A DNA stretch of 62,673 nucleotides, the filler included, from Rhabdomonas costata (Eukaryota), in NCBI GenBank assembly GCA_019059605.1. It is 41 parts of 41 records of this genome, joined end to end, with 100 filler letters (N's around TTAATTAATTAA, not from the genome) between each part and the next. Parts side by side here need not be neighbours in the genome. Positions count along the whole stretch, not along the records: positions 38,289 to 39,719 come from JAHMHO010016138.1; 40 more parts are not named here. The stretch is one strand, 5' to 3'. Every line of letters begins with the position of its first letter. Position 1 is the stretch's first letter. A program made the translations under genes and the position numbers. The notes beneath the pieces were generated by a model. It searched no databases and was not told the origin of the DNA. It saw only the letters and a program-made list of their open reading frames with translations. Shown in pieces: positions 10,248 through 40,034 of the stretch.

Positions 10248-12257
10248 CTAAGAAGGGAAGGACGGAAACGAAAATGAGGAGACGGCAAATCGCCAAAAAC
10301 ACTTCCACACTTCCTGGGCAACTCGTAAGCGCAGCGCATGCACTTGTGCACATCACGCAGCCGTGAATGACGGTAACATAACATGAAAAACATGAACAAA
10401 TCCGCACACACGAAGCCCGCATATGAAAGCCGAGTTGAGTTGGGTCACACAAAAACGTCCAGAATCAAGGATCCTCCATACGGAAGAGCGGAATGCGCGT
10501 GCCGACGCTTTCTGTCCCCCTTCCAGACAGCATATATGAACAAGATCTAGAACAAGAAATAACAAAAAACAAAAACAAGAACGAGAATGAGTACACGAAC
10601 TATGGAGTTGCCGCCACCACACCCANNNNNNNNNNNNNNNNNNNNNNNNNNNNNNNNNNNNNNNNNNNNTTAATTAATTAANNNNNNNNNNNNNNNNNNN
10701 NNNNNNNNNNNNNNNNNNNNNNNNNGTTGTTTGTGGTCGAAGGGTAGATCTGATTATTGTGAAAAACAACATAACCCCGCCCCCCCAAAAAAACAAAGAG
10801 AGAATTCACAATAACTGGCATCCACATTAACGAAAAAAGGACATCTGAAATGGGAATTGAGGGTGCAACAGCGCCACCAGAAGATGCGCAGGTTTTCGGT
10901 GCGTAAACTAGCAGAAAAAAGGCCTATCGTTTGCCTGCGTAACGGTAAAATGGCATTTGATATCGCTAGGCAATGTGCACTCACCGAAAGATTCAACAGG
11001 GTCTAAGGAAACCAAGTTCCAATGCGTCACGAACAGTCTCTCTGAGGGAAGGTATTGCCATCCTATGCAACAGCGGAGCAAACCTTCGGTTGAGCCTCAT
11101 CATCCCTCATAAACATAACTATTCGCACCAAACTTGCTGGACACATTTGCGGTGAGCCTACAGAGAGGTCTAAGTCGAAGTAGGCCTCTTTTGTATATAC
11201 AGGCATCCCGAAACCCTGCCGCTGGCCGGTCCTTGGGGTCAGAATTTTCTGACCTTTCACCCTTGGCGGCTCTTTCATATCCCTTTTGTGCCGCTGGAAG
11301 CACATTTGGCACTTTCTGGAGCATGGCGTTGTCCACTTGATGTCAAATTTGGAACCACACCAGATTTCACGACCCTGATGTGCAGAATATTCCCCCAAGC
11401 GAGCAAATCGGAATATTCAGGAGCGTGAGAGAGAAGCGTGAGCGTGAGACCCCTGCCACGTGTTTGCCCCCAGCACAGCCGCAAATATTTGCCCTTGGCT
11501 GGCTTGTGCAGGTGCACCACAGTTCGCATACCTTTTCAATCAGAGTGTCGTAGGCTACCACGGCCTCAGGGACGCTGCACCGCAGAAGGTCCCCAAAATT
11601 TGTGATCCGCACCGTCATCACTACAATCTGCGCAGGAGTCATCACGATAGGCCACACCTTCCACGAACCAGGAAAGGAGTGAAACGGGGGAAACAAAGTG
11701 TGAAAGAACGAACTATGATCCACTGCTACCAAAAAAACCTGTATTATGCTCCAGCCTAAACCCAGAAATTTTGTTACTGGGACAGAACTCAGGTCTAAAC
11801 CTTGCGTCTGTACCGTGTTCCCCATGGTATGCTGTATTGGGGCAATGGCAGCTTCTAAGCCAAAAACAATCTGTGCAACCCCTTCTTTTTGCGATACATC
11901 TTTGTTTCGCAATACTACACTGCTAACTGGCGGTTATGAACCTCCACTCAGAGACATCCACCCGAGACCAGCGGAACACATATAAATATACAGGGCAAAA
12001 CGACCACTCTCTCAGTTTCCGGATGCAGCTAACCTGATCTTACATAGATCGCAAACCCCAGCAAAAACCACACAACGTTAAACAGCGATACAATTTCGCA
12101 AGGAAGACTGCTTGCTAACCATAAAAGAGCAACAAAAACCCCAAACACACCCAGCACNNNNNNNNNNNNNNNNNNNNNNNNNNNNNNNNNNNNNNNNNNN
12201 NTTAATTAATTAANNNNNNNNNNNNNNNNNNNNNNNNNNNNNNNNNNNNNNNNNNNN

Positions 12258-16853: not shown

Positions 16854-17490
16854 GGGTTGTTTGTATCTGATGCCGAAATGTTGTTGGGGTTGAAATTTGG
16901 TTCGTTAACAAAGGCCAAAATCTCTCCTGTGTTGACATCTGCTACAATGGCGCTGGCAGTTTTCGCTCTGGTTGCATTTTTTATTTTTACCATTTCCTCA
17001 CAAACGATGCTCTGCAGGGCAAGATCTATGCTCAGCTCCACCGGTTCATTATTTACCTGACTCTTAATTTGTTCGTCTAATCCCCTTTCGATACCAGCTA
17101 ACCCATTTCCATCTGTGTCTACGTAGCCGGTTATATGCGCCAGTAGACTTCCATGAGGATAAAAGCGCTTATAGTCCCGTACACATTCTATACCCTCTAC
17201 ACCAAGTGCGTTGATCGCATCTTCTTCCGTTGGTGTGATGTTCTTTCGGATCCAGACAAAATTTCTCTGAGACGTAAGTTTTCTTAATACCTGTGAATAG
17301 TTTGTGTCCCTGAGCATCGCCGAGACCATTTTGGCGAGTTTCTTAGGATCATCTACCTTTTTCGGGTGCGCGAACAGACTGGCCGTCGGAATATTCTCGG
17401 CGATCGGGTTTCCATATCTATCGATTATTTCCCTTCTCACTAGGACGTGTGCTGCCGTTTTTTGTTGATTGAGTAGTAGAAACTCTTTAA
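16854..17490 (-). CDS. ftsI: Bacterial penicillin-binding protein 3 fragment (dimerisation domain and start of transpeptidase domain), Rickettsiales-like
   Basis: RREIIDRYG..IA.NIPTASLFAHPK, FVWIRK, KRFYPHGSLLAHITGYVDTDGNGLAGIE, LSIDLALQ, DVNTGEILAFVNEPNFNPN. No introns, and lower GC than the adjoining DNA. Confidence 0.93.
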
Positions 17491-17581
17491 CCTCCCCCCC
17501 CCCTAGAAAATGCTACTGTTCCTTGGTTTTTATCACCCAAAGGCATACGGGTTTGTACGTAGTGTTGTGTGTGCTCTGCAG

Positions 17582-20408: not shown

Positions 20409-21349
20409 AGAAGACAACCGTACTTTTGTTCCAGCTTCCGTAATTGCGGAAATCATTCAAAAGTACCACGATTCCCCTGCAGCTGGACATTGGGTAATTC
20501 AACTGACCGTAGCCATGATCAAACGTCGCTACAACTTTCCACACATCAAGCGAAGCGTCCGCGACTATGTCAAAACATGCCACCAGTGTCAACTGAGTAA
20601 GGCAGAGCACCATCTACCGCGTGGTCTACTGGAAGCTCTAAAGATTACTAAACGAAAATGGCAGTATGTCTCAATGGACTGGACAAACGTGGATGAGTGC
20701 CAACTACAAGGCAACCGAATGGTCTTTGAAGAGATCCTAAAGGTCACAGACAGTGGAACAAAAATGGTTCATTTGATTCCAATCAACAAGCACCACACTG
20801 CAGAGATGACAGCAGACCAGTTTTTGGATGCTGTTGTCAAGTACCATGGGCTACCGCGAAGTTTGGTCTCCGACAGGGATCAGCTTTTTATGCGGACCTT
20901 TTGGAAGACAGTGTGCAGAGCCCTGGACATCAAAATACGAGCTTCAACCTCGTACCATCCACAGACTAACTGGCAAGCTGAACGGACTAATCAGACACTA
21001 AAGCAGGTCCTCAGAATACTGCAGATCCAACGACCTAACGTTCCCTGGATTCATCACATATCGTTTGGCGGAAATGGCCGTCAACAAAGCTTCAATCGCT
21101 AGCACGTAGTTTAGTCCATACTACCTGAACTATGGATTCCACCATGTTCTCTTTGGTGATCTACCAGATGCTGCCTATCCGGAGCAGTTCTACGCTAGAG
21201 ACAGTCAAGGAGTTTGTCAAGCGGTTGAAACAAAATTGGAAAGACATTCAGGCCTCCTTTGAAAAGAACCAAGAAAGCATGGTGGCTGAAGCCAACAGAA
21301 AACGACGGGACTACGAGTTCAGCGTAGGCAATTTGGTACTGGTCAACCA
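20409..21349 (+). mobile_element. Ty3/Gypsy LTR-retrotransposon integrase, degenerate
   Basis: HHCC finger (YHDSPAAGH...CHQCQ), SMDW, YHGLPRSLVSDRD and YHPQTNWQAERTNQTL. Frameshift and stop at about 21065-21110. C-terminal ANRKRRDYEFSVGNLVLV. Confidence 0.95.
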
Positions 21350-33695: not shown

Positions 33696-34332
33696 GTGTG
33701 GGATCAAGCTCTTGGAAGCAGGTGCCCCCCTTGCCATCGCGGAGAAACCTCCGCCGCAGCGGGCTGATGTGCCCCCCAGGCAGAATGAACAGGCAGCCAT
33801 TCTCCGTGGTGGCGTGCTCCAAGGCAAGCCAGAAACCGACTACGCTCACCGGTTCAGTGAACAGAAAGCTGGCGTCCTGGTGGGACCGGACCTCGCCGCC
33901 GATGTGGGGCTGCTTGAAGATGTACATGGACTGTAAAAGCAAAGGCTTCTGGATGCCTAGATCCTGGGCCATTGCGGGAAGGTTGTGCGCAGTGGAGAAC
34001 TGTCGAAACACGGGATTGAGCTCATGCAGGGCATGCCCGATCTTGTTGTTGGACAGCTTCCTGTCCTGCCGCAGTTTGCCATCTGGGGAAAAGGCATCGG
34101 GCTCGAAGAAGAAGTGAATCTTGTCCCCGGAGGATAAAAGGTAGTCATTCGAGACTCGCTCCTGGTCAACCGTGGTGAAAATGGTGCGCTGATGTGCGGC
34201 AGGATCGAACCCCTGCAGAAGGGCATCCGCTTCCTTCAAGAGCACATCGCATTCCTCTTCAGATGCGAAGTCTGGGATCACCAAGAATCCATCAGTGTGA
34301 TACAGTGAAAGCTGCTCTGATGTCAGCCGCAT
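33696..34332 (-). CDS. PHYHD1: Phytanoyl-CoA dioxygenase domain protein (PHYHD1-like Fe(II)/2OG oxygenase), 3'-truncated
   Basis: DGFLVIPDF, SGDKIHFFFE, NKIGHALH, QSMYIFKQPHIGGEVRSHQDASFL (HxD), GFWLALEHATTENGCL. Confidence 0.93.
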
Positions 34333-35333
34333 TCTGTGGAGCAATGTCCAGCTCAAAAGACACACCACGAGGGAGAGAGGGAGGCAGTCGGAGATGAACG
34401 AGCGGATGGAAGGGATAAGTTCCCAAAAACGAAACAGTGATGTCACTAAATGAAAGCGTTGCCACCAAGACAAAGCGGGAAACAACACAAATTTGCATAC
34501 TTAGCTCCACAGGATTAATCCTCTCCACAAAGGGCAAGAAAGCTGCTCACAGGCGGTTCACAGACACCCTCGTTATGTAAACAAGCCGAGCCGTTCGAAC
34601 CTAAAGGGCCTACGTTGGGAGCAGGTGGGACAACAAGGTCATCCGGGGCCGTTCCAAAGAGAACATGCTTCCCACACGTTTTCCAAGTGGCCAACTCTGT
34701 CAGAGACGCAAAAAATGGTGTTTGTCACCAGTGCACCTGCTTTCGACGCGAATCCCACGTATTCCAATCCCTACAGAGCGATCGGAAAGCGTGAATGTAA
34801 TAGATGTACAATAAACTCAGAGCTCGTACCAAAACAGCATCCACCGCAGGCGTTGCCCTTCTCCCCTTTTTGGGTTAGGGTTACCACTGAAAGTGAGGGA
34901 GCGTGAAGGTGGGCCAGACACCACCACGGCGTTGTACAACTTGCGCCAGGCTTTCTTCCGAGGGCAACGGCAAACCCGACCTACTAACAACCACTGCGGC
35001 GGGTGCTCCGCCGTCATCACCCTTCCGTTGTGCGTAACAGCCACCACTGTCACTGTCGCCAGGAGGCAGGCGTGCAGCCACGGCGACCTGGAGCCCCATC
35101 TCCCCGGCCTCGATCCCACCCCCACCNNNNNNNNNNNNNNNNNNNNNNNNNNNNNNNNNNNNNNNNNNNNTTAATTAATTAANNNNNNNNNNNNNNNNNN
35201 NNNNNNNNNNNNNNNNNNNNNNNNNNTGTTGTCGGGGTCCTGTGACCGATTTTCTTTCCAAGCCGTCCACCTTTCCTTTGCCTTTGTTGTCGCTATCCCA
35301 AAGTGCATCGTGGCATACGTTTAAACGTGAGGG

Positions 35334-38188: not shown

Positions 38189-38288
38189 NNNNNNNNNNNN
38201 NNNNNNNNNNNNNNNNNNNNNNNNNNNNNNNNTTAATTAATTAANNNNNNNNNNNNNNNNNNNNNNNNNNNNNNNNNNNNNNNNNNNN

Positions 38289-39649
38289 GGTGGGTTGTTC
38301 TGAAGCAGCTGCGTTTGACGTCCAGGCCTGGTCTAAAGGCTGCGAGTCTGGTGGATGCAGCTGGGAGCGTTCTCGTGTCCGACCTGTTAAATTCCGCCAA
38401 CGACAATGGACGAATGCTAACTGATGGGGATTCCGTGTCAGTCATAACCGAACGGATACCAGTCGAAGGTGCTCGATTGCACGTTGTGGGGACCATTGAT
38501 GAAGGCAGCACGGTTTCCTCTGGGGCTATTCCAACAGCTTTTGTCCAAATGGAAATTCCCGAGAGTTCCCAGGGGAGTCTGGCACGACTTTGTGCTCTTC
38601 GTGAAATTAATCGTTTGCTGTCACAAAGGAAAACCGACGCTGCGGTGGAAAAAAGCATCGCATGCGGGGTTATCTGCCGAGCTACGTGCTTCCTGATCGA
38701 AGGAGTTGAATCTACCACAGTGCGTTATCCTATGAAGCGCGTTCCCCACCCACCTCAGTGCTCAGCAACATCTTTCGCTGGTGCTAACCTCTGCCATGAG
38801 CAGATCGCAGAATTTCGGGAGGCTTTTTCTTTGTTCGACAGGGACGCGGACGGGACAATTGCCACCCATGAACTGGTAACCGTACTCCGGGCTCTGGGGC
38901 AGAACCCCACTGCTGCAGAGGTGCAGGATATGGTGAACGAGGTGGACCAGGATGGGAGTGGTACCATTGACTTTCCTGAGTTTCTTTCACTGATGTCATG
39001 CAGGATGTGCGACACAGACACTGAGCAGGAGTTAGGTGAAGCCTTTCGTGTCTTTGACAGGGATGGCAATGGTTTCATATCAGTCACGGAGCTTCGCCAC
39101 GCATTAACCAACTTGGGCGAGATGCTTCCTGACGACGCTATTGAAGAAATGCTCCGCGAGGTTGAGGTCGATGGCTGTGGTCTCGTCAATTACGAAGAAT
39201 TTGTTAAGATGATGATGTCAATGGACACCCCAGCTACTGCGCCGGTAACTGGCATTCCATCCCTGGCGCCACCTGTGGCGAGCACATCGCGGCAAGCTCC
39301 AGCATCTGTTACCGTCCATGACTTGCTCCTCCTGCAGTCGTTTGAAGGATCTTGGAGTTTACGCGAGGTTCTTCGAGCTTGTGGAGGATTGAGCTCAACG
39401 TTCACCCCTGATACGGTGGCTTGGAACGCCCTGCTCCCTGTTGGACTTGAGCGTGACGTCGGGGACACTCTATTGGTGACTTTGCTGGCACTGTTGGTGC
39501 TCCGCACTAGGTTCGTCTCAGAGCAATTAGCTTGGCAACTCATGGCTGAGAAAGGTATGCGATGGATTTCGGAAAGCGTCCCGCAGTTTTCCACGGTAGC
39601 CTCAGTTCGCTTGGACGCGGCCTTCACGGCTGCCTTCAGCGGTTCTTAA
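38289..39649 (+). CDS. VWA5/PARP4-like (VIT-vWA family) C-terminal region with an embedded calmodulin, 5'-truncated and intronless
   Basis: [13 protein letters not shown]...[18 protein letters not shown] precedes, and [13 protein letters not shown]...[12 protein letters not shown]...[12 protein letters not shown] follows, a four-EF-hand calmodulin at 38789-39220. Confidence 0.85.
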
Positions 39650-40034
39650 AAGGTTGTCAATGTTGGCAGAACCAAAGCTTAAATTTGTGCTTTTTCTTTT
39701 GGGTGTGTACAAACCCAACNNNNNNNNNNNNNNNNNNNNNNNNNNNNNNNNNNNNNNNNNNNNTTAATTAATTAANNNNNNNNNNNNNNNNNNNNNNNNN
39801 NNNNNNNNNNNNNNNNNNNGGTTTGTGTGTGTGTGTGTGTGTCTTTGTAGCTCTAACTCTCGGGCTGGGTTCTTCTATGAAGAACACAGGAACCACTTTT
39901 GCAGGTTCCCAGTTGTTCCCTCGGGCAGGGCTCACTCTCTCGGGCCAACGGGCATAGACATGCATAGTTGTAGGAGGGTTGCTGGTGACCGAATGAGAGA
40001 TATCTGCCATCCCATTCAACTCACAGAAGCGTAC

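Follow-up and report, generated by a model that had tools for sequence, protein, structure and literature searches.

In nearly all cases calmodulin exists as a free protein whose sequence hardly varies, and the cellular roles of VWA5A/PARP4-type proteins are poorly understood. One contig of the Rhabdomonas costata assembly GCA_019059605.1 combines the two subjects, and raises the question of what kind of gene would carry calmodulin in frame between two non-calmodulin blocks and of what the calmodulin would do there. The stretch of DNA that we analysed, referred to as the window, is 62,673 bases long.

The contig and its reading frame

The window consists of 41 contigs of 1424–1434 nt each, separated by runs of N and a stop-codon linker. 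The contig of interest and its reading frame are laid out as follows.

38289..39719, no strand: contig of interest, 1431 nt, with N/stop linkers on both sides, a G/T-rich 5′ end and a C/A-rich 3′ end
38291..39649, plus strand: reading frame, 452 codons and TAA, 5′-open, upstream part of the gene missing
39650..39719, plus strand: post-stop stretch, 70 nt, terminating in a C/A-rich primer-like stretch, without poly(A)

Restricted composition of this kind was found at many contig ends. At least 9 of the first 10 bases were G or T in 28 of the 41 contigs and at least 9 of the last 10 were C or A in 22, where the expected chance of such a two-letter end is 0.011 per end. One C/A 11-mer formed the terminus of three contigs. 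We take these ends to resemble the two-letter primers supplied in commercial kits for amplifying whole genomes or whole transcriptomes; given the primer-like ends, the contig may be cDNA or amplified DNA. Because the contig is 1431 nt long with ends of this type, the absence of introns is uninterpretable and was given no weight. The contigs are also mixed in content, with a penicillin-binding-protein (PBP, bacterial) fragment, a retroelement integrase and a PhyH dioxygenase on one contig each. Thus, adjoining contigs are uninformative on gene context. An Rfam scan of the whole window gave 0 matches, as did searches for the dinoflagellate and the Euglena spliced-leader motifs with up to 3 mismatches allowed.

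The frame begins at position 38291, the first base of the contig being 38289, and is 5′-open because the contig ends there; the TAA stop codon occupies 39647–39649. With the base composition of the contig, the chance of 452 stop-free codons is 2.3e-9, and that of the 165 codons upstream of calmodulin (the N flank) is 7e-4. The 452-residue protein was absent from the protein collection in an exact look-up, and a search with it for homologues of near equal length returned mostly tandem calmodulins. The AlphaFold model of the protein had an overall pLDDT of 62.8 and a pTM of 0.37, and was confident for calmodulin and for residues 340–450.

A diverged calmodulin module within the frame

The central part of the frame encodes the calmodulin module, followed by a linker.

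38786..39220, plus strand: calmodulin module, residues 166–310, contiguous, approximately canonical residues 3–148, without a start Met
38837..38872, plus strand: EF-hand 1 loop, residues 183–194, canonical, with a modelled strand at residues 189–191
38945..38980, plus strand: EF-hand 2 loop, residues 219–230, canonical
39056..39091, plus strand: EF-hand 3 loop, residues 256–267, canonical
39164..39199, plus strand: EF-hand 4 loop, residues 292–303, degenerate, with Glu at position 1 and Cys at position 5
39221..39307, plus strand: linker rich in Pro, Ala, Ser and Thr, residues 311–339, pLDDT below 50

Residues 166–310 matched solved calmodulins with E values of 8.5e-66 to 1e-63, the alignment spanning canonical residues 4–148, and a Pfam search with all 452 residues returned EF-hand families only, over approximately the same residues and including four EF-hand_1 stretches. 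All canonical ligand positions are kept in the loops of EF-hands 1–3 and not in that of EF-hand 4, so that the module does not have four canonical loops. Alignment to canonical calmodulins showed that Lys115 is replaced by Met278, Met36 by Leu199 and Met109 by Leu272. Since the module begins without a Met codon, it could not be translated alone from that point. What the contig carries is thus not a free-standing, near-invariant calmodulin; the module forms part of a frame of 452 codons and has 66–72% identity to six canonical types of calmodulin. The first-pass annotation had described one open reading frame with calmodulin in frame between two non-calmodulin blocks, and reading of the frame, the Pfam search and the PDB matches confirmed this. 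Its description of the sequence (canonical EF-hands 1–3, degenerate EF-hand 4, the Lys-to-Met change and the Met-to-Leu changes) was right in all details that could be checked.

The C-terminal domain is related to the MINT domain of PARP4

The linker leads into a C-terminal domain that ends the protein.

39308..39646, plus strand: helical C-terminal domain, residues 340–452, related to the PARP4 MINT domain and the C terminus of VWA5A-type proteins

When used alone as a query against 1.84 billion representatives, this C flank identified 42 proteins at E<=1e-3, of which the best scored 5.6e-8. The matches in those 42 relatives lie at the C-terminal end. The invariant residues of the domain are Q349, G353, W355, T397, L404 and K421. 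Two full-length matches, P0059 and P0064, contain both VIT and vWA; P0059 matched the PARP4 VIT-vWA region at 6.9e-29 and also matched inter-alpha-inhibitor heavy chains. The C flank alone gave nothing below E 0.67 against the PDB. A profile built from 20 C-domain sequences matched only two PDB sequences at E<=10: PARP4 residues 1569–1642 (6.2e-5) and residues 732–824 of 9e5c_4s (5.7e-4), an 842-residue Trypanosoma brucei "VWFA domain-containing protein" of the 96-nm axonemal repeat. A Pfam search with the 20 C domains returned no family for the domain itself. In PMC12280208, PARP4 residues 1562–1724 are described as the MINT domain, which docks PARP4 on the major vault protein. The fold of modelled residues 324–448 matched residues 708–842 of 9e5c_4t over 117 aligned positions (Z 9.9, rmsd 4.7). 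A Z score of 9.9 is modest for a helical domain, yet it agrees with the independent profile match to the same entry. From these data we conclude that the C flank belongs with the docking (MINT) domain found at the C terminus of PARP4 and of VIT-vWA proteins, to which it is related.

Calmodulin-fused relatives

Among long proteins (792–2260 aa), 34 matched at E<=1e-3, and VIT, vWA and EF-hand occurred together in 16 of them; by Pfam, all four full-length members tested contained the three. These relatives came from marine metatranscriptomes, run assemblies, EukProt and one genome annotation. P0006, P0017, P0023, P0186, P0022 and P0031 are examples of fused forms, of which P0022 is labelled Namystynia karyoxenos, a diplonemid, and P0031 is from Cladocopium goreaui. 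Calmodulin fusions related to that of the window therefore occur in dinoflagellates and in a diplonemid. The fused relatives have the same order as the window, in which the calmodulin module is followed by a P/A-rich linker and the C domain. Their database names are uninformative: a few read "calmodulin" or "Ca2+-binding EF-hand superfamily protein", and in no case does the name indicate a fusion.

In tblastn searches of the window, P0105 gave an E value of 1.5e-78 and P0186 one of 7.8e-61. P0186 has a contiguous arrangement of tail, calmodulin, linker and C domain like that of the window, its N terminus is also cut, and it is 47% identical to the window from calmodulin to the C domain (E 2e-62). 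P0105, P0107 and P0108 consist of calmodulin and the C domain only, a form that could in principle be an assembly chimera created through common calmodulin words. A metagenome scan for upstream content with P0036, the closest C-domain relative, gave no confirmed match.

The first-pass annotation knew of no description of this architecture. Searches of open-access full text turned up no account of VIT-vWA proteins fused to calmodulin, nor of inserted domains that divide a calmodulin. With VIT, vWA and EF-hands in 16 of the 34 long matches, the architecture is to some extent already common in sequence databases, which the annotation had named, for InterPro, as a ground for refutation.

Calmodulin is split in most full-length relatives

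The position of calmodulin in the relatives was mapped with canonical calmodulin and by aligning 15 members that are complete or nearly so. VIT-vWA interrupts calmodulin within EF loop 1 or 2 in 14 of these, the first piece being N-terminal; the fifteenth, P0009, has a cut N terminus. The order is calmodulin residues 1 to approximately 21 (or 1–56), VIT-vWA and its tail, calmodulin from approximately residue 24 (or approximately 60) to 134 or 149, and then the C domain. In 10 of the 15 members, calmodulin residues 135–149 stand at the very end of the protein, after the C domain, the break being in EF loop 4. Conservation along the alignment is among the highest in the terminal pieces, for example from M1 to L19, and the region of EF-hands 2 and 3 is 76–94% identical to canonical calmodulin. 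Because no words are shared at these joins, the split form is not explicable by a chimera through common words. The window module, by comparison, is one contiguous stretch covering canonical residues 5–148 and is not split within the part that the contig carries, the contig being cut upstream.

The model of P0023 had a pLDDT of 72.1. Its last calmodulin piece, residues 984–996, was modelled as a short strand and a helix (pLDDT approximately 67), like the second half of an EF-hand, and its N-terminal helix had a pLDDT of approximately 55. This model suggests that the split pieces of calmodulin may reassemble. In a fold search with the 997-residue model, vWA matches filled the list, masking any match to a reassembled calmodulin. 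On a tentative view, EF-hand closure on Ca2+ in the split members might be linked mechanically to where the inserted VIT-vWA and docking domain lie.

A proposed Ca2+-sensing scaffold

VWA5A/PARP4-type proteins have a low-complexity linker at the position of the window's calmodulin. The explanation that we favor, with somewhat better than even confidence, is that the contig holds the 3′ part of a genuine gene, one encoding a VWA5A/PARP4-type (VIT-vWA) scaffold in which a diverged calmodulin replaces this linker and would act as a Ca2+ sensor. The missing upstream part of the gene would encode VIT and vWA. EF-hands 1–3 would still bind Ca2+, and binding by EF-hand 4 would be weakened. Opening of the module on Ca2+, or closure of the module around a helix of the same chain, would then alter the placement or binding of the vWA head and the docking domain. 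The resulting protein would have a built-in Ca2+ sensor, by analogy with the calmodulin-like domains that are fused to kinases. A basic amphipathic helix is modelled at residues 96–113 of the tail upstream of calmodulin, and this helix is a candidate cis target of the module. The spacing between the module and the C domain is 29 residues. A complex prediction with the module (166–312) and the C domain (336–452) gave a score of 0.27, the mark being 0.34, a value that weighs neither for nor against contact.

The module could instead be a permanent structural part of the protein, bound in cis at any Ca2+ concentration in the manner of a light chain and providing stiffness or an interface without sensing. 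The degenerate EF-hand 4, the replacement of Lys115, Met36 and Met109 and the alteration of 25 of 107 otherwise invariant positions (see below) would all fit such a role, as would the relatives, in which EF loops 1, 2 or 4 are broken by large domains at what should be a cost to Ca2+ binding there. However, EF-hands 1–3 of the window module keep all canonical ligand positions, and the region of EF-hands 2 and 3 in the relatives remains 76–94% identical to canonical calmodulin, which makes a purely structural part unlikely.

The N flank is a candidate post-vWA tail

If the contig is the 3′ part of a scaffold gene of this kind, the block upstream of calmodulin would be the region that follows vWA in the relatives.

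38291..38785, plus strand: N flank, residues 1–165, probable post-vWA tail from the last vWA helix, weak evidence

Direct homology searches did not identify this block. The N flank had no match in Pfam, and neither VIT (PF08487) nor vWA (PF13768/PF00092) was found by Pfam in the 452 residues, the frame being cut at the contig start. None of 40 tblastn HSPs for related pieces fell on the other contigs of the window, outside 38289–39719. Three tail HMMs scored 1.3, 2.1 and -0.6 bits on the N flank, which did no better than shuffled sequences and ranked 18 of 201, 12 of 201 and 82 of 1001 among them. Nothing significant was obtained with phmmer against 196 stored proteins or by pairwise local alignment against 31 tails (best z 3.1), a word-index search of long proteins found none at E<=10, and 0 of 275 pattern matches from a metagenome scan were confirmed. 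In the protein atlas, VWA_3 was the only Pfam family among the matches listed (two of five and two of four rows, with scores of 0.81–0.82), and these matches are leads only.

A permutation test was carried out in which pairwise scores between the N flank and the tails of 11 fused relatives were summed; P0025 and P0028 were left out as their start motif was not found. The N flank scored with z values of 3.55–3.88, and 4, 1, 0 and 0 of 500 shuffles scored as high. Control values were 0.17–0.25 for reversed tails, 0.23–0.35 for the reversed query, -0.17 to 0.95 for VIT segments and 0.85 to 1.94 for vWA segments. The length of the N flank is 165 aa, compared with 166–188 aa from the vWA-closing helix to calmodulin in the relatives, and it is with this helix that its first residues align. 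The AF2 confidence of the N flank was below 50; the predicted order of three strands followed by a long helix near offset 95 is common to the window and P0023 models. Taken at the level of sequence, the N flank is likely a strongly diverged post-vWA tail. The first-pass annotation had assigned both flanks to VWA5A/PARP4-type proteins. For the C flank the profile, the fold and the 42 relatives bear this out, whereas for the N flank as a post-vWA tail the indications are weak, consisting of the z values of 3.55–3.88 with no HMM support.

Codon use in the N flank differs somewhat from that in the rest of the frame, with a GC3 of 0.47 compared with 0.59 and 0.56, and a GAA:GAG ratio for Glu of 8:1 compared with 9:15 (Fisher p 0.017). 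This deviation (p 0.017), together with the primer-like contig ends, the mixing of organisms in the assembly and the lack of a significant homologue of the N flank, would be expected if the N junction were an artefact of primer-based amplification or of assembly, in which unrelated coding sequence became attached to a transcript for calmodulin and the C domain. Yet the two parts are on the same strand and in the same frame with no stop codon between them, and calmodulin starts with no trace of a start codon or 5′ UTR. Moreover, the N flank is tail-like in length (165 vs 166–188 aa) and in its colinear likeness, and the same join occurs independently in P0186. We therefore consider an artefactual junction quite improbable, and retain the reading in which the contig is the 3′ part of one scaffold gene.

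The module is not a fresh copy of calmodulin

The origin of the module was examined by comparing canonical residues 32–134 with dinoflagellate, two kinetoplastid, plant, vertebrate and oomycete types of calmodulin. The window module was 71.8% identical to the dinoflagellate type, 69.9% and 68.0% to the kinetoplastid types, and 66–69% to the plant, vertebrate and oomycete types. It was also the most diverged module of the set, with 72% identity to dinoflagellate-type calmodulin compared with 79–94% for the relatives. Its motifs are mixed: VDQDGSG is of the kinetoplastid type, as is the ..MMMS end, and FLSLM, DTDTE.EL and FDRDGNG are of the dinoflagellate type. The first-pass annotation had taken HEQIAEF, VDQDGSG and DTDTE as Euglena or euglenozoan signatures. 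An assignment to euglenids from the calmodulin motifs was rejected, as the mixed dinoflagellate/kinetoplastid signature does not decide it.

Of 107 columns that are invariant in six canonical calmodulins, 25 are changed in the window module and 25 in P0186. The two share 12 changed columns where 5.8 were expected (p 0.0017), with the same residue in only 2. To judge from the sequences, the shared changed columns fit modules that have been freed from the general constraint on calmodulin and have a dedicated role in cis.

A quick C-domain tree was built from 61 rows and 142 columns, the truncated P0031 being left out. The window was placed on a long branch among fragments without visible calmodulin, outside the calmodulin-fused groups. 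A single clade of all 21 fused rows was neither rejected (AU p 0.26) nor demonstrated, and both one old fusion and repeated capture are possible. Judged by its divergence, the fusion is either old or fast-evolving and the module is no fresh copy of canonical calmodulin.

These results bear on the first-pass proposal that the host's own calmodulin had been retro-inserted as a special event, which is not supported in view of the recurring domain order, the 16 of 34 matches, the 66–72% identity and the 25 of 107 changes. In its sharper form, a recent, lineage-specific retro-insertion of a host calmodulin cDNA into the VIT-vWA linker, independent of the other fusions, would account for a module that spans nearly the whole coding sequence (approximately residues 3–148) without start or stop, for the separation, in the quick tree, of the window's C domain from the fused forms of other proteins, and for the VDQDGSG motif and ..MMMS end that it has in common with kinetoplastid-type calmodulin. 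However, with 66–72% identity to every canonical calmodulin and 25 changes at invariant positions the copy is not recent, a single clade of fused C domains is not rejected, P0186 shares the architecture and the lineage signature is mixed; we give such an event little credence.

Least credible of all is a dead retrocopy or pseudogene fragment that is still open by chance, because a calmodulin module more diverged than any other in the set, the degenerate EF-hand 4 and 1.36 kb without introns, if the contig is genomic, have to be set against 452 stop-free codons (p 2.3e-9), the retention of all of Q349, G353, W355, T397, L404 and K421, and intact EF-hands 1–3.

Relation to known systems

The favored reading, a scaffold with calmodulin in its chain, can be compared with several characterized proteins. 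Calmodulin-like domains are fused in cis to enzymes in CDPK and CCaMK. The window protein resembles these in that one chain would hold both a four-EF-hand module and its presumed target, so that sensing of Ca2+ would not depend on free calmodulin; the parallel is one of logic only. Unlike CDPK, it has no kinase and no identified autoinhibitory junction helix, and its host is of the scaffold or adhesion type. The EF lobe of Toxoplasma CDPK3 (3hzt_A) was among the fold matches of the window model (Z 6.6).

PARP4 and VWA5A-type proteins have a related C-terminal helical domain, the window's match lying inside the MINT domain (1562–1724) as delimited in PMC12280208. PARP4 also has BRCT and catalytic domains. 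The window contig is without VIT or vWA, and docking on the vault is described for the MINT domain of PARP4. If our reading is right, calmodulin has been hard-wired into a scaffold whose C-terminal domain, in PARP4, docks on a giant particle. The relatives in which the Ca2+ loops of calmodulin are interrupted would provide a natural example, and a rare one, of domains nested within a sensor.

Full-length comparisons were made with P0023. Against inter-alpha-inhibitor heavy chain 1 (6fpy_A), an ITIH protein with a VIT-vWA-tail arrangement, this fused relative gave a Z score of 22.7 with 506 aligned residues and an rmsd of 6.8. The closest solved full-length scaffold was the T. brucei axonemal vWA protein (9e5c, chains 4s/4t), of which residues 19–842 matched residues 71–947 of the P0023 model (Z 20.1, 597 aligned, rmsd 6.9). 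Unlike the window protein, the vWA protein of 9e5c has no calmodulin in its chain. Literature searches on the axoneme structure and on VWA3-type axonemal proteins yielded no usable account of this vWA chain.

Since the closest scaffold is axonemal and its entry also includes calmodulin, the fusions may record a flagellar calmodulin-vWA pair; by the analogy of a Rosetta stone, this would be a pair that tunes flagellar beating. More broadly, the window may belong to an undescribed protist family in which calmodulin and the PARP4/VWA5A scaffold work as one machine, a natural domain-insertion switch, a view that we advance tentatively and hold to be rather less than probable. From the fusion one would expect calmodulin to be physically linked to VWA5A/PARP4-type proteins, and the trypanosome axoneme structure is a place to look for such a link. 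The calmodulin chain of that entry, 9e5c_4x, was among the best matches to the window's module.

Arrangement of calmodulin in related proteins

In the alignment of fused relatives (A3), calmodulin was found in two or three colinear pieces in the database proteins P0006, P0008, P0010, P0014, P0016, P0017, P0021–P0023 and P0025–P0029. The VIT-vWA portion of these split relatives was inserted at EF loop 1 or 2 and the helical C-terminal domain (C domain) at EF loop 4, and the terminal calmodulin pieces were highly conserved. The C domain directly followed calmodulin, without VIT-vWA, in four short proteins or fragments (P0105, P0107, P0108 and P0060), which may be real proteins or else assembly chimeras formed via the shared calmodulin sequence.

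A full calmodulin was also embedded in a second fusion, represented by P0110 and P0137, that differs from the VIT-vWA fusion. These two proteins have a C-terminal block in common, other than the C domain, in which they are 52% identical across 71 residues (E 2e-15), and the calmodulin of P0137 was of the kinetoplastid type (92%).

The structure of the T. brucei 96-nm axonemal repeat (PDB 9e5c) contains a vWA protein (chains 4s/4t) that matches the calmodulin-fused VIT-vWA family from end to end. Calmodulin is a separate chain in the same entry (4x), and this chain was among the best matches to the diverged calmodulin module of the window.

Contig ends and other coding content of the window

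The window is composed of 41 contigs of about 1431 nt each, separated by N/stop linkers. Most of the contigs start with G/T-only sequence and close with C/A-only sequence (ends at 12142, 18270 and 19802, for example), and the same C/A 11-mer was present at the closing end of 3 of the 41. Because of these restricted end compositions and the repeated 11-mer, the contigs appear to derive from primer-amplified DNA or cDNA; the end letters may be the primers of an amplification kit.

The window contained the following additional coding features.

16856-17512, minus strand: penicillin-binding-protein dimerisation domain (E 1.7e-14) and start of the transpeptidase domain
20410-21099, plus strand: retroelement integrase (Integrase_H2C2, 4.5e-18; rve, 3.4e-7, score below the Pfam cut-off)
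33697-34500, minus strand: Phytanoyl-CoA dioxygenase (PhyH) domain (E 6.4e-33)

Since the penicillin-binding-protein frame looks bacterial, the assembly represents mixed organisms. The strand opposite the N flank, which precedes the calmodulin module, was also open for 163 codons (38233-38724, minus strand), some of which consist of linker N.
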